Source of the DNA: an uncultured archaeon
Lineage (GTDB): Archaea > Aenigmatarchaeota > Aenigmatarchaeia > QMZP01 > JACQNV01
Direction: 5' to 3'
DNA: 64,000 bases
Assembly (NCBI GenBank): GCA_964476045.1
Contig: CAYYYJ010000001.1
Location: forward strand, 50,733 to 114,732
A program made the translations under genes and the position numbers. The notes below the pieces were generated by a model. It saw only the letters and a program-made list of their open reading frames with translations, was not told where the DNA came from and did no database searches. Positions 14,945 through 33,476 of the stretch are shown piece after piece. Positions within the stretch are counted from its first letter, which is position 1. The number at the start of each line of letters is the position of its first letter.

Positions 14945-15264
14945 GCCTCGGTAGCTCAGCCATATACCCTCTTTCTTTCGAGGAAGGTTGGAAGTTGATT
15001 TGAGACCAATTGGAAAACAAATCAACTTCGTCCCTTTAAGAAAGAGCCTTATAACCCAGAAAGAAAGACGTTACAAGTGGATTATAAGTATGGAGCAACA
15101 GGTAGAGCGATCGACTGTTAATCGATAGGTCGGAGGTTCGAGTGTCTAGCCTTTCTTTAGAAAAGAAAGGCTACAGTACCCAAAGAAACTAGAATTCTTT
15201 GGCACTCGTTGAGATTCCAAAACTCAGAACCCAGAACTCAAGACTGATATTCCTCCCCGAGGCG
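14945..15264 (+). tRNA. tRNA-Asn (anticodon GTT) with two large introns at non-canonical positions (D-loop about 138 nt; T-loop about 108 nt)
   Basis: Acceptor GCCTCGG pairs perfectly with CCGAGGC 313 nt downstream. D-arm: GCTC AGCC | intron | GGTAGAGC. Anticodon arm ATCGA-CTGTTAA-TCGAT is contiguous. Variable loop AGGTC. T-stem GGAGG-TTCGAGT | intron | CCTCC. Discriminator G; no encoded CCA. Confidence 0.75.
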
Positions 15265-15274
15265 CTGAAGAGTC

Positions 15275-15313
15275 GAAACTGATTTTAAAGCAATTGCATC
15301 GAAAATCAGTTTC
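15275..15313 (+). repeat. perfect 12-bp inverted repeat hairpin in the tRNA-Asn/tRNA-Phe spacer
   Basis: GAAACTGATTTT ... AAAATCAGTTTC with a 15-nt loop, between the two tRNA genes. Confidence 0.5.
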
Positions 15314-15323
15314 CGTCTTTCAT

Positions 15324-15475
15324 GGGGGTGTAGCTCAGCACCCTTTTCCTAAAAGCGTGCACGGAAAAGGATGAGCATTGGGAGAGCACACGGCTGAAGA
15401 CGCACCTTTCTTTAAAGAAAGCTGCACCAAAGAATAGACACCGTGGTGTCGGGTGTTCGATCCACCCCACCCCCA
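15324..15475 (+). tRNA. tRNA-Phe (anticodon GAA) with two introns (D-loop about 37 nt; canonical 37/38 about 39 nt)
   Basis: Acceptor GGGGGTG/CACCCCC, discriminator A. D-arm: GCTC AGC | intron | ATTGGGAGAGC. Anticodon arm CACGG-CTGAAGA | intron | CCGTG. Variable loop GTGTC. T-arm GGGTG-TTCGATC-CACCC. Confidence 0.8.
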
Positions 15476-29147: not shown

Positions 29148-30854
29148 ATGCCAAAATTTGAAATAAGCAAATCTGATCTGGAGAAGCTGGTTGGAAAAAA
29201 GTTCACAGCAAAAGAATTAGAGGATGCGCTCTTGTTCGCAAAGACAGAATTGGATGGGCAAAACGGCGACACGCTCAAAGTTGATGTGAAGGATACTAAC
29301 AGGCCTGACCTATGGAGCGTAGAAGGTATTGCGCGAGAGCTCAAAGGCCACTTTAGGATAGAAGAAGGCCTCCCGAAATATAATGTGAAAAAATCTGGCC
29401 TGCAGATTTTTGTTGAAGCAGAGGAATATCACGTACATGCAGTCGGAGTTGTTGTAAAAAATTTAAAAATCGATGATAACGTGCTTTCCCAAATGATACA
29501 ACTACAGGAAAAGGTTGCAGGGACTTTTGGAAGGAACAGGAAAGCACTTTCTATTGGAGCATATGATTTGGGGAAAGTAAAGTTCCCTGTCAAATACGTT
29601 GCAAAAAAACCGCAGGATATAAGGTTCGCTCCTCTCGGTTTTAATAAGGAGATGACTGCGAAAGAGATTTTAGCAAACCACGAAAAAGGTAAACAGTACG
29701 GAGAAATCATAAAAAACGCCAAAACATATAATGTCTGGGAAGACGCTAACAAAAAAATACTTGCTTTCGAGCCAATAATTAATTCCAATGGGGCAGGGAA
29801 TGTGACTACACAAGCTAAAGACATATTTTTAGAGTGCACAGGAGATGACCTGAAACAAATTCAGATAGCAATAAATGTTGTCGCAACAGCACTAGCTGAG
29901 CGAGGCGGGCAAATAGAGTCAATCGAAGTTGTCCACAAAAATAGAAAAACAGCCAGTCCAGATTTGACTCCAAAAAAATCTCACTTGGACCCAGAATATT
30001 GCAGAAAGATTTTAGGTTTGGAGATTTCAGATACTGAAATGGTAAAATTATTGAAAGAGGCTAGGCATGATGCAAAACTAGACAAGAAAAAAATCGGCCA
30101 AGGGACGAAACCGGTCAGCGGACCGATTTCAACCATTTCTGTTGAATATCCTGCTTACAGGAATGACATAATGCACCAGCGCGACCTTGTAGAAGACGTT
30201 GCAATCAGTTTTGGTTATAATGATATAGAGCCAGAGACACCGAAAATTGCTACGATAGGGGCTTCTCACAAACTCGAAGACTTCTCAAATATTATAAGAG
30301 AAATATGCGTTGGTTTGGGTTTGCAGGAAGTCCTGACTTTTACTTTGACAAACAAAGACAATATGTTCAAAAAAATGAATCTGTCGGAAAAGGATCTTGT
30401 TGAAATAGAAAATCCAATGAGCTCGAATTGGTCTGCTTTTAGGGATAAAATAATGCCTAACTCGCTTGACTTCCTAGCTTCTAACAAAAACCAGGATTAT
30501 CCACAGGGAATTTTTGAAGTAGGCGACGTCACGCTTTTAGATCCTTCAAATAAAGATACTGGGGTGACTAATCGCAGGAAGTTTTCTGTAGTTCTCACGA
30601 ATACGCAAATAGGTTATGAAGATGCGTCTTCGCTGCTTTCAGCACTAGTGTCCAGTTTAGGCAAAAAACTGGTTTTAAAGAGAAAAGAGATCTCCTCATT
30701 CATCGCTGGAAGGGCGGCAGAGATTTTTCTGGACAACAAATCAATCGGGATAATAGGCGAGATCCATCCTCAGGTCCTAAATAATTGGAATTTGGAGAAG
30801 CCTGTTGTGGGCTTTGAGATAGATATCGAGTCTCTGCTTGAATTGATACAATAG
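29148..30854 (+). CDS. pheT: phenylalanyl-tRNA synthetase beta subunit (archaeal type)
   Basis: N-terminal B3/B4-like domain (LKVDVKDTNRPDLWSVEGIARE) and catalytic-like C-terminal domain, 568 aa. Confidence 0.9.
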   Translation: MPKFEISKSDLEKLVGKKFTAKELEDALLFAKTELDGQNGDTLKVDVKDTNRPDLWSVEGIARELKGHFRIEEGLPKYNVKKSGLQIFVEAEEYHVHAVGVVVKNLKIDDNVLSQMIQLQEKVAGTFGRNRKALSIGAYDLGKVKFPVKYVAKKPQDIRFAPLGFNKEMTAKEILANHEKGKQYGEIIKNAKTYNVWEDANKKILAFEPIINSNGAGNVTTQAKDIFLECTGDDLKQIQIAINVVATALAERGGQIESIEVVHKNRKTASPDLTPKKSHLDPEYCRKILGLEISDTEMVKLLKEARHDAKLDKKKIGQGTKPVSGPISTISVEYPAYRNDIMHQRDLVEDVAISFGYNDIEPETPKIATIGASHKLEDFSNIIREICVGLGLQEVLTFTLTNKDNMFKKMNLSEKDLVEIENPMSSNWSAFRDKIMPNSLDFLASNKNQDYPQGIFEVGDVTLLDPSNKDTGVTNRRKFSVVLTNTQIGYEDASSLLSALVSSLGKKLVLKRKEISSFIAGRAAEIFLDNKSIGIIGEIHPQVLNNWNLEKPVVGFEIDIESLLELIQ

Positions 30855-30855
30855 A

Positions 30856-32091
30856 TTACACGTTCACAGGTATTGCAATTTTTAATTTCTCGACCATATC
30901 TAATTTCTCCCAGCTAAAACTATCTCTTCCGAAATGGCCGTATTTCGCAGTTTCTGCATACACTGGTTTTCCAGGACCTATCAACTTTAGCTTTTCTATT
31001 ATCCTGCCTGGTCTCCATGGGAAAACTTCTTTGACTTTCTCTGCTATCTCATGATCGGGGATCTGTCCTGTTCCAAAAGTATCAACTCTTATAGACAACG
31101 GATCTGGCTTCCCTATAACATAAGAAACCTGTATTTCGCACCTATCGGACAGACCGGAAGCTACAATATTTTTTGCAGCCCATCTGCATGCATAGGTTGC
31201 TGACCTGTCGACTTTTGACGGATCTTTTCCTGAAAAGGCGCCACCGCCATGCCTTCCCATTCCGCCGTATGTGTCCACGATTATTTTTCTTCCAGTTACG
31301 CCACTATCGCCTACTGGACCCCCTATAACAAATCTCCCTGTCCCGTTTATATGAAATTTTGTATCTTTATCCAACATCTCGTGCGGTATAACTTTCCTTA
31401 TAATTTCATCCTCTATCCCTTGTCTAATCTCTGAGTCTGTTGCGGACTCTAGGTGCTGCGCAGCTAAGACGACATGAATCACTTTTATAGGCTTGTTGTT
31501 TTCGTAGAGAACTGTAACTTGGGATTTTGCGTCAGGCCTAAGCCATGGAAGTATGCCATTTTTCCTGCACTGATCCAATTGCATAATAAGTTTGTGGGAT
31601 AAGTCAATCGGCAACGGCATCAAAGACGTTGTCTCATTTGTTGCATATCCGAACATCAGGCCTTGGTCTCCGGCGCCTTGCAAATCAAGGTCGGCTTTAT
31701 TTACGCCTTGCGCAATATCAACTGATTGTTTTCCCAATAGAGACAATACAAAGCAATTGGGGTCAAAACCGTCTCCATCCACATAGCCGATATCTTTTAT
31801 TGTTCTTCTGACTAAGTCTTCTGGATCAAATTCCGCATTAGTGGTGATCTCTCCCAATAAAACAATGGCCCCGTGCTTTTCAATGTGTTTCGCGTTCTCA
31901 ACTCCGAATAGTTTTACCAATGGCGCATATTTTTTATTATCAAAAATGCCTGCTTTAACGCCTGTCTCAACTGCAACTCTTGAATTCACATCGCCTAACA
32001 GGGCTGCATCCACTATTGAATCTGAGACCTGATCACAGACTTTATCTGGGTGTCCAGGAGAAACAGCCTCGGAAGTAAAATATGATTTCAT
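30856..32091 (-). CDS. metK: S-adenosylmethionine synthetase, bacterial/eukaryotic MetK type
   Basis: FTSEAVSPGHPDKVCDQVSDSIVDA and GGGAFSGKDPSKVDRSATYACRWAAKNIVASGL match MetK motifs, not the archaeal MAT family. Confidence 0.85.
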   Translation of the reverse strand: MKSYFTSEAVSPGHPDKVCDQVSDSIVDAALLGDVNSRVAVETGVKAGIFDNKKYAPLVKLFGVENAKHIEKHGAIVLLGEITTNAEFDPEDLVRRTIKDIGYVDGDGFDPNCFVLSLLGKQSVDIAQGVNKADLDLQGAGDQGLMFGYATNETTSLMPLPIDLSHKLIMQLDQCRKNGILPWLRPDAKSQVTVLYENNKPIKVIHVVLAAQHLESATDSEIRQGIEDEIIRKVIPHEMLDKDTKFHINGTGRFVIGGPVGDSGVTGRKIIVDTYGGMGRHGGGAFSGKDPSKVDRSATYACRWAAKNIVASGLSDRCEIQVSYVIGKPDPLSIRVDTFGTGQIPDHEIAEKVKEVFPWRPGRIIEKLKLIGPGKPVYAETAKYGHFGRDSFSWEKLDMVEKLKIAIPVNV

Positions 32092-32944: not shown

Positions 32945-33136
32945 AAGCCTTTCTTTCTGAAAACTCTGCCCAAAGAAATCCTCAAAGGGACGAAACCGAT
33001 CTTATCCAATTGTTTAGGATCGGTTTCCAACCTTCCCTGGAAAGAAAACATGCAGTGGGTTCCAGATTCACATAATCTAACTATTTCTCCAAGCGGGTTT
33101 ATTAATGTTTGTAAATTTCTATAAAAAAATAAATAA

Positions 33137-33404
33137 CGGACCCGAAGGGATTTCCAGCTAGCCTTCTTTTTTCTAGTGCAGGTCTTTGCATCAGCAAAGA
33201 AGTGCCTTTTCTAAAGAAAAGGCTAGAATTTGAACCCTCGACCTTCAATCCAAAGTTTTCTTCCTTAGGACGGTGCTGCTCTGTCCAAAATGCTCAATTC
33301 TTTCTGGTGCAGCTCTTTCTTTTAAGGGACGAAGCTGATCTTTCAGTGATTGGTCAGGATCAACTTCCTTTCTTCCTCAGAAAGAGGTGCTGAGCTACGG
33401 GCCC
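33137..33404 (-). tRNA. tRNA-Ala-like gene with multiple introns; anticodon arm not resolved by eye (possibly a third intron or a pseudogene)
   Basis: Minus strand: acceptor GGGCCCG-TA-GCTC-AGC at the 5' end pairs with CGGGTCC plus G at the 3' end, including a G3:U70 pair (Ala identity). T-arm GAGGG-TTCAAAT | intron | CCCTT. D-loop and T-loop insertions share modules with the tRNA-Asn introns. Confidence 0.45.
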
Positions 33405-33414
33405 GTAGTGGATG

Positions 33415-33438
33415 GACACTTATCTTCAGATAAGTGTC
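33415..33438 (-). repeat. perfect 9-bp stem hairpin immediately 5' of the tRNA-Ala-like gene
   Basis: GACACTTAT cttcag ATAAGTGTC, 10 nt upstream of the tRNA 5' end on the minus strand. Confidence 0.45.
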
Positions 33439-33476
33439 GACCATACTATTTTTAACTCCTCTTTTTAAATGCTAGT

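Follow-up and report, generated by a model that had tools for sequence, protein, structure and literature searches.

A probable three-intron tRNA-Arg(CCU) gene in an Aenigmatarchaeote

The tRNA genes of Thermoproteales (Crenarchaeota) carry up to three bulge-helix-bulge introns, occupy non-canonical positions with them and exchange them by intron transposition (Sugahara et al. 2007/2008, Fujishima et al. 2010, summarised in PMC4090602). Disrupted tRNA genes and broad-specificity endonucleases are also described from ARMAN/Micrarchaeota and other DPANN archaea (PMC3239211; PMC5829648). Cyanidioschyzon merolae and nucleomorphs possess multi-intron and ectopic-intron tRNA genes as well (PMC3728597; PMC4090602), and their hosts are eukaryotic, whereas the genes considered here are archaeal. 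The reviews consulted give at most three introns for an archaeal tRNA gene, and our literature searches returned nothing on four-intron archaeal tRNA genes or on tRNA introns of Aenigmatarchaeota.

Here we describe a locus on the minus strand of a 64-kb stretch of archaeal DNA, which as a whole is called the window. Comparison with orthologous loci makes it very likely that this is a three-intron gene for tRNA-Arg(CCU), and likely, with somewhat less assurance, that the gene is fully functional. The system resembles that of Thermoproteales in its intron positions, which include 29/30 and 59/60, in its relaxed hBH/HBh' motifs, and in the presence of closely similar introns in different tRNA genes and positions (near-identical in Thermoproteales). 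It differs in that the host belongs to the DPANN archaea (Aenigmatarchaeota) and not to TACK, and in having its own intron families A and B, a separate hairpin module nested in two introns, and one orthologue (L037) with four introns. The window positions 15/16 and 40/41 are absent from the Thermoproteales positions in PMC4090602. With the ARMAN and DPANN systems it shares a DPANN lineage, multiple non-canonical introns and a tRNA set that is incomplete by standard predictors, but Aenigmatarchaeota lie outside the genomes analysed in those studies (PMC3239211; PMC5829648). Several introns per gene and the transposition of introns are established features of archaeal tRNA genes; what is new here is a lineage with its own intron families.

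Host, detection and gene organization

The proteins encoded in the window are archaeal and include archaeal-type PheRS alpha and beta, AglB/STT3 and MinD. The closest relatives of PheRS-beta are found in Candidatus Aenigmatarchaeota MAGs (69% identity), and the host is a DPANN archaeon of this group. The S-adenosylmethionine synthetase encoded at 30856-32091 on the minus strand is of the bacterial/eukaryal MetK type (PF00438, PF02772, PF02773) and not of the usual archaeal type. Its gene is syntenic in several relatives (L147, L154 and L155).

Standard tools pass over the tRNA gene. ARAGORN calls no tRNA in the 64-kb window, and Rfam has no tRNA match there at its gathering score or at E<=10. 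When introns are permitted, ARAGORN run on the orthologous loci makes calls that are mostly spurious. A scan for acceptor/T-arm combinations, which is a crude heuristic, finds three matches in the window where random sequence gives 1.5 per 64 kb, and is not significant alone. The exons common to five orthologous loci, the cloverleaf pairing and the compensatory changes described below nevertheless indicate that the locus is more than a chance resemblance. Since three tRNA genes are missed in this one window, tRNA censuses of MAGs, and inferences of completeness or auxotrophy for DPANN archaea, undercount tRNAs. A published DPANN survey had already suspected missed tRNAs (PMC5829648).

The gene proper spans 33137-33404 on the minus strand between a 284-aa ORF on one side and minD on the other; the upper coordinate of 33438 given in an earlier sequence-only reading of the locus takes in the 5' leader. 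The strings quoted in that reading are all present, GGGCCCG-TA-GCTC-AGC starting at 33404 and GAGGG-TTCAAAT ... CCCTT-CGGGTCC-G ending at 33137, and its figure of about 190 nt of insertions agrees with the 193 nt (100 + 15 + 78) measured in the gene. It also correctly counted this as the third multi-intron tRNA gene of the window, each of which (Asn, Phe and Arg) contains two or three introns. The tRNA-Asn(GTT) gene at 14945-15264 on the plus strand has introns of 139 nt in the D-loop and 108 nt in the T-loop, and the tRNA-Phe(GAA) gene at 15324-15475 on the same strand has introns of 40 nt in the D-loop and 40 nt in the anticodon loop. The features of the locus under study are as follows.

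33405-33476, minus strand: 5' flank and leader, with A/T-rich TATA-like boxes and a palindrome
33390-33404, minus strand: exon 1, tRNA positions 1-15, GGGCCCGTAGCTCAG; acceptor 5' strand, D-stem 5' strand, A14-G15
33290-33389, minus strand: intron 1, 100 nt, in the D-loop at 15/16; family A backbone
33320-33380, minus strand: hairpin module within the loop of intron 1, about 60 nt
33263-33289, minus strand: exon 2, positions 16-40, TTTGGACAGAGCAGCACCGTCCTAAGG; remainder of the D-arm, GCACC (5' strand of the anticodon stem), loop GTCCTAA (anticodon CCT), G39-G40
33248-33262, minus strand: intron 2, 15 nt, AAGAAAACTTTGGAT, at 40/41 in the 3' strand of the anticodon stem
33229-33247, minus strand: exon 3, positions 41-59, TGAAGGTCGAGGGTTCAAA; remainder of the anticodon stem, variable loop AGGTC, T-stem 5' strand, T-loop to A59
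33151-33228, minus strand: intron 3, 78 nt, in the T-loop at 59/60
33137-33150, minus strand: exon 4, positions 60-73, TCCCTTCGGGTCCG; T-stem 3' strand, acceptor 3' strand with U70, G73
33121-33136, minus strand: T-rich tract TTATTTATTTTTTTAT, immediately 3' of the discriminator

CCA is not encoded at the end of exon 4. The T-rich tract is probably an archaeal oligo-T terminator, and similar tracts lie 3' of the gene in L148 and L037. Two TATA-like boxes upstream, ATTTAAAAAG at 33470-33461 and TTAAAAATAG at 33455-33446, are both common to L148 and may serve as the promoter. Between these boxes and the 5' end of the tRNA, at 33438-33415 on the minus strand, is a perfect 10-bp palindrome, GACACTTATC TGAA GATAAGTGTC. 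It has no counterpart in L148 or L154 and thus marks a lineage-specific insertion of about 34 nt in the window's lineage. A 63-aa ORF with a GTG start at 33202-33393 on the plus strand lies wholly within the tRNA gene on its opposite strand and is almost certainly spurious, although automatic annotation could pick it up as a gene.

Orthologues and splicing

Orthologues were reached through MinD homologues, which lead to the same intergenic region, and were supplemented by L003 and by a metagenome match, L037. The metagenome scan with the query GTAGCTCAGCACCNNTTT matched at least 120 stretches, nearly all of them chance matches in coding DNA, and only L037 and L118 were useful among the matches listed. 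The same tRNA gene is located upstream of minD in L003/L154, L148-L152 and L159, and five distinct versions of it were compared (window, L148, L154, L037 and L159). Exon 1 has the same sequence in the window, L148, L154 and L037. The orthologues contain from one to four introns, which are distributed over 15/16, 17/17a, 29/30, 37/38, 38/39, 40/41 and 59/60. This range within one gene provides a compact natural series for the gain, loss and replacement of archaeal tRNA introns outside Thermoproteales.

The version with four introns, L037, is on the minus strand of metagenome contig Ga0114944_1055584, has the anticodon TCT and is interrupted at 15/16, 29/30, 37/38 and 59/60; it is a side observation that deserves follow-up. 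L156, L157 and L158 have just the last exon (CCTCC-CGGGTCC-G), which lies some 320 nt upstream of the NUDIX gene that precedes minD, and the 4 kb examined in them contain no 5' part of the tRNA gene. Sequence like the 3' portion of the T-loop intron of the window Asn gene precedes this exon. Either the fragment was left behind by a rearrangement within the T-loop intron, or it is the 3' piece of a tRNA gene that is split.

The window copy has no contiguous anticodon arm, as had been observed from its sequence, and reads A-GCACC-GTCCTAA-GG(AAGAAAACTTTGGAT)TGA-AGGTC. Its closest relative, L148-L152 (MinD 89% identical), has a single intron in the D-loop and a contiguous arm, G-GCACC-GTCCTAA-GGTGA-AGGTC. 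Deleting the 15 nt at 33262-33248 from the window copy gives GCACC-GTCCTAA-GGTGA-AGGTC, exactly as in L148-L152, and none of the alternative placements of a 15-nt gap yields the L148 arm. Because the arm is restored exactly, a third intron exists in the 3' strand of the anticodon stem at 40/41. The sequence-only reading had suggested a third intron that interrupts the anticodon loop; the intron in the anticodon arm is thereby borne out, while its position proves to be the stem and not the loop. Intron 2 is restricted to the window's lineage, and an independent assembly of this lineage (L147) is identical. Two other constructions of this region were rejected on the evidence of L148: a long variable arm as in Leu or Ser tRNAs, and splicing in the register GTCC:GGAT, which leaves the product 5 nt short and with no 3' strand of the stem.

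Joining the four exons gives a 75-nt product, GGGCCCGTAGCTCAGTTTGGACAGAGCAGCACCGTCCTAAGGTGAAGGTCGAGGGTTCAAATCCCTTCGGGTCCG, which differs from that of L148 at five of 75 positions, four of them in the T-stem with pairing kept. Across the five spliced orthologues, 96% of the cells of the cloverleaf pair, compared with 22-58% in slid controls. Six cloverleaf pairs show compensatory changes in which both sides are altered, and three of these are in the anticodon stem. The product has two oddities, a G27.A43 mismatch and G32. At the level of sequence comparison, the exon/intron boundaries, the cloverleaf and the anticodon are established by this set of orthologues.

All splice motifs were read by hand, using the standard archaeal rule of a 4-bp central helix with 3-nt bulges on either side and a cut after the second bulge nucleotide (N1N2/N3, where the slash marks the cut). 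A strict or relaxed motif can be read at each of the three introns, which answers the manual search that the sequence-only reading had called for. Intron 3 has a full hBHBh' motif comprising the T-stem GAGGG:CCCTT, the central helix TTCA:TGGA, bulges AA/T and AA/T, and the inner helix CTAGCC:GGCTAG; its position and central helix recur in L154 and L037. Intron 1 has a central 4-bp helix GCTC(10-13):GAGC, bulges AG/C and AT/T, and an inner helix TCTTTCT:AGAAAGA, and since an outer helix is missing the motif is of the relaxed HBh' type. The 3' end GAGC-A-N/ recurs in D-loop introns of Arg, Phe and Asn genes (window, L154, L037, L118 and L001). This register gives the mature D-loop AGTTTGGACA, on which the window, L154 and L148 agree despite an unrelated intron in L148 that lies 2 nt further on. 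Intron 2 has the weakest of the three motifs, a 4-bp helix CTAA(35-38):TTGG that includes one G:U pair and a 3' bulge AT/T. Its 5' site GG/A is in the closing loop, and the motif is therefore a relaxed bulge-helix-loop, which needs an endonuclease of broad specificity. The same rule also fits all four introns of L037 with clean motifs, for example GCGT:ACGC with bulges CG/A and AA/G at 29/30.

A decaying copy had been raised as the alternative to a third intron. If the 15-nt insertion were unspliceable, the locus would be a pseudogene that makes no working tRNA, and AGG would be read by another tRNA. The presence of intron 2 in the window's lineage alone, and its relaxed motif, are compatible with this. 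Energy minimization of the whole precursor recovers the acceptor, D and T stems as well as the hairpin of the module, but not the splice helices of introns 1 and 2; the register it prefers is GUCC:GGAU, at which cutting would lose the 3' strand of the anticodon stem. Forcing the splice helices costs about 12 kcal/mol, a value that is indicative only, the intron 3 helix being one base off in that calculation. Decay is contradicted, however, by four intact exons that are nearly identical to those of L148 and whose T-stem differences are compensated, by the retention of the TATA-like boxes and the oligo-T tract, and by the identical sequence of the same lineage in an independent assembly. In addition, intron 2 is so placed that the cut rule of the other introns finds a 4-bp helix and a 3-nt bulge beside both of its junctions. 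We regard a pseudogene as improbable.

As a spliced tRNA gene, the locus would be transcribed from the upstream A/T-rich box into a precursor of about 270-310 nt that ends at the oligo-T tract. Every bulge-helix-bulge or relaxed motif would then be cleaved by the archaeal tRNA splicing endonuclease after the second nucleotide of each bulge. The exons would be joined by an RtcB-type ligase, and RNase P and RNase Z would trim the ends before CCA is added. The resulting 75-nt tRNA would be charged with arginine and would decode AGG. No splicing endonuclease or RtcB was found among the 20 window ORFs scanned.

Amino acid identity of the product

Excision of the introns reconstructs the anticodon stem-loop as GCACC-GTCCTAA-GGTGA. 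The window, L148, L154 and L159 share the anticodon CCT, and L037 has TCT. A20 and G73 are invariant in the five orthologues, the D-loop AGTTTGGACA supplying G18, G19 and A20. A20 in the D-loop is an arginine identity element in many systems. Anticodon CCU, A20 and G73 together identify the product as tRNA-Arg(CCU) and not tRNA-Ala. ARAGORN calls all of the spliced products tRNA-Arg, and that of the window tRNA-Arg(cct). It is permissive with such constructs, since 168 of 743 arbitrary single deletions in the middle region still yield some tRNA call, and the weight of the assignment consequently rests on the comparative evidence.

The use of AGG agrees with this assignment. AGG is the commonest Arg-box codon in the window (18.9 per 1000). 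Three window genes, for PheRS-beta, MetK and MinD, were compared with distant homologues that use other codons, and their AGG codons align with R (112) and K (31) as against A (6). AGG occurs at the conserved arginines of PheRS-beta (residues 52, 129, 131, 338, 432 and 522), and the AGG columns of MinD are R/K over 109 homologues. Because AGG aligns with R/K it means arginine, with no codon reassignment, and the tRNA is tRNA-Arg(CCU); to the extent that aligned sequences can do so, this comparison establishes the meaning of the codon.

The sequence-only reading had taken the gene for a tRNA-Ala, and the acceptor stem accounts for this. The G3:U70 wobble that it pointed out is present (33402 and 33140), and the combination of G1:C72, G2:C71 and G3:U70, which is invariant in the five tRNA-Arg(YCU) orthologues, led to the misreading as alanine. 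According to reviews, G3:U70 is enough for charging by AlaRS in many contexts (PMC7954030, PMC9976931). The locus could on these grounds be a true tRNA-Ala, or an alanine-accepting CCU tRNA with AGG reassigned to alanine. No loop with an NGC anticodon can be assembled from the window copy, however, the discriminator is G73 in all five orthologues where tRNA-Ala has A73, and the codon decoded is an arginine codon that is used at conserved arginine positions. Alanine identity is therefore extremely improbable, and the alanine label does not hold. The tRNA resembles canonical archaeal tRNA-Arg(CCU/UCU) in its YCU anticodon, A20, purine discriminator, GGGCCCGTAGCTCAG start and reading of AGG as arginine, and departs from it in the non-Watson-Crick 27:43 pair, G32 and G3:U70.

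G3:U70 on the product should attract AlaRS, and its conservation on an arginine tRNA is a testable oddity that, like the four-intron L037 gene, merits follow-up as a side observation. The wobble is kept in L159 even though the adjacent pair 4:69 has changed there from C:G to U:A. A distant Aenigmatarchaeote tRNA-Arg(UCU), in L014, has an ordinary G3:C70 together with A73. Both observations would suit a tRNA of dual identity, mainly charged with arginine but partly mischarged by AlaRS through G3:U70, such that a low level of alanine at AGG is tolerated, edited or used. Alanine is not in excess at AGG sites (6/206) compared with AGA sites (15/171), a test by alignment that is blind to low-level ambiguity, and G73 and other features of the tRNA may act as antideterminants. 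We consider dual identity to be quite unlikely. A broader proposal, which we also regard as unlikely, starts from the retention of the universal alanine identity set (G1:C72, G2:C71 and G3:U70) on tRNA-Arg(YCU) in this clade of Aenigmatarchaeota. Either the AlaRS of the lineage would have lost or changed its reliance on G3:U70, or AGG and AGA codons would be read ambiguously, as arginine with some alanine. If the proposal is true, either option would represent a natural departure from one of the best-conserved rules of tRNA identity.

Intron families and the hairpin module

The Arg and Asn genes of the window have related D-loop introns, as the sequence-only reading had noticed, with 85 identities in 95 aligned columns, or 59% of a gapped alignment of 144 columns. 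The alignment score of 105.5 compares with 45.6 +/- 6.2 for shuffles (z about 9.7). The T-loop introns of the two genes open with the same TCTAGCC-TTT(T)CTTTAGAAAAG hairpin, which had been noticed as well. They match at 62 of 73 aligned columns, with a score of 63 against 32.7 +/- 5.6 (z about 5.4), and the homology covers the 5' part of Arg intron 3. The D-loop introns that the window and L148 carry in their orthologous Arg genes are unrelated (z 0.4).

Two intron families can be recognized. Family A, with the form CACC-pyrimidine tract ... purine tract-GCTGCACC-AGAAAGAA, supplies the 15/16 intron of the Arg gene and both introns of the window tRNA-Phe gene, those at 15/16 and 37/38 (z 8.5-10.4). 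No good 4-bp central helix could be fitted to the anticodon-loop intron of tRNA-Phe. Family B, with the form TATACCC ... GCCTTATAACCCA ... GGTTAC, supplies the 15/16 intron of the window Asn gene and, among the Arg genes, the 17/17a intron of L148 and L159 and the 59/60 intron of L037 (z 8.8-13). The similarity of the Arg and Asn D-loop introns is due mostly to a shared hairpin module of about 60 nt that is set into two different backbones. The distribution of these sequences suggests that the intron families moved between genes and positions, and that the module was inserted separately into intron loops. The motif CTGCACC in the Arg D-loop insertion was considered as the displaced UGC anticodon of a permuted gene and was rejected; it belongs to the intron core and is also present in the tRNA-Phe 37/38 intron and others.

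The module consists of an outer helix GAGG:CCTT, an internal loop, a helix of 10-11 bp (GAAGTTGATC:GATCAGCTTC in Arg intron 1), a loop with (A/C)CAAT, which is ACCAAT in Arg intron 1, and a 3' GTCCCTT. Four pairs of the 10-bp helix covary. A covariance model locates four copies in the window, all of them within or beside tRNA genes.

33380-33320, minus strand: copy in the Arg D-loop intron
14978-15042, plus strand: copy in the Asn D-loop intron
15262-15322, plus strand: copy that forms the Asn-Phe spacer
33042-32978, minus strand: copy about 30 nt upstream of the minD start

Weaker relatives are detected by the model in L001, L003 and L118, and the module is absent from the L037 version of intron 1. 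Inspected by eye, it fits no C/D box, H/ACA, K-turn or bulge-helix-bulge of its own, and it behaves like a small palindromic mobile element. The model also has a weak match (18.6 bits, E 0.035) at 30098-30143 on the minus strand, which has the TTCGTCCCTT motif too; this site is inside the PheRS-beta coding region on the opposite strand and is probably due to chance. The Asn and Phe genes of the window are arranged head-to-tail, 59 nt apart, and the same Asn-spacer-Phe order is found in L001.
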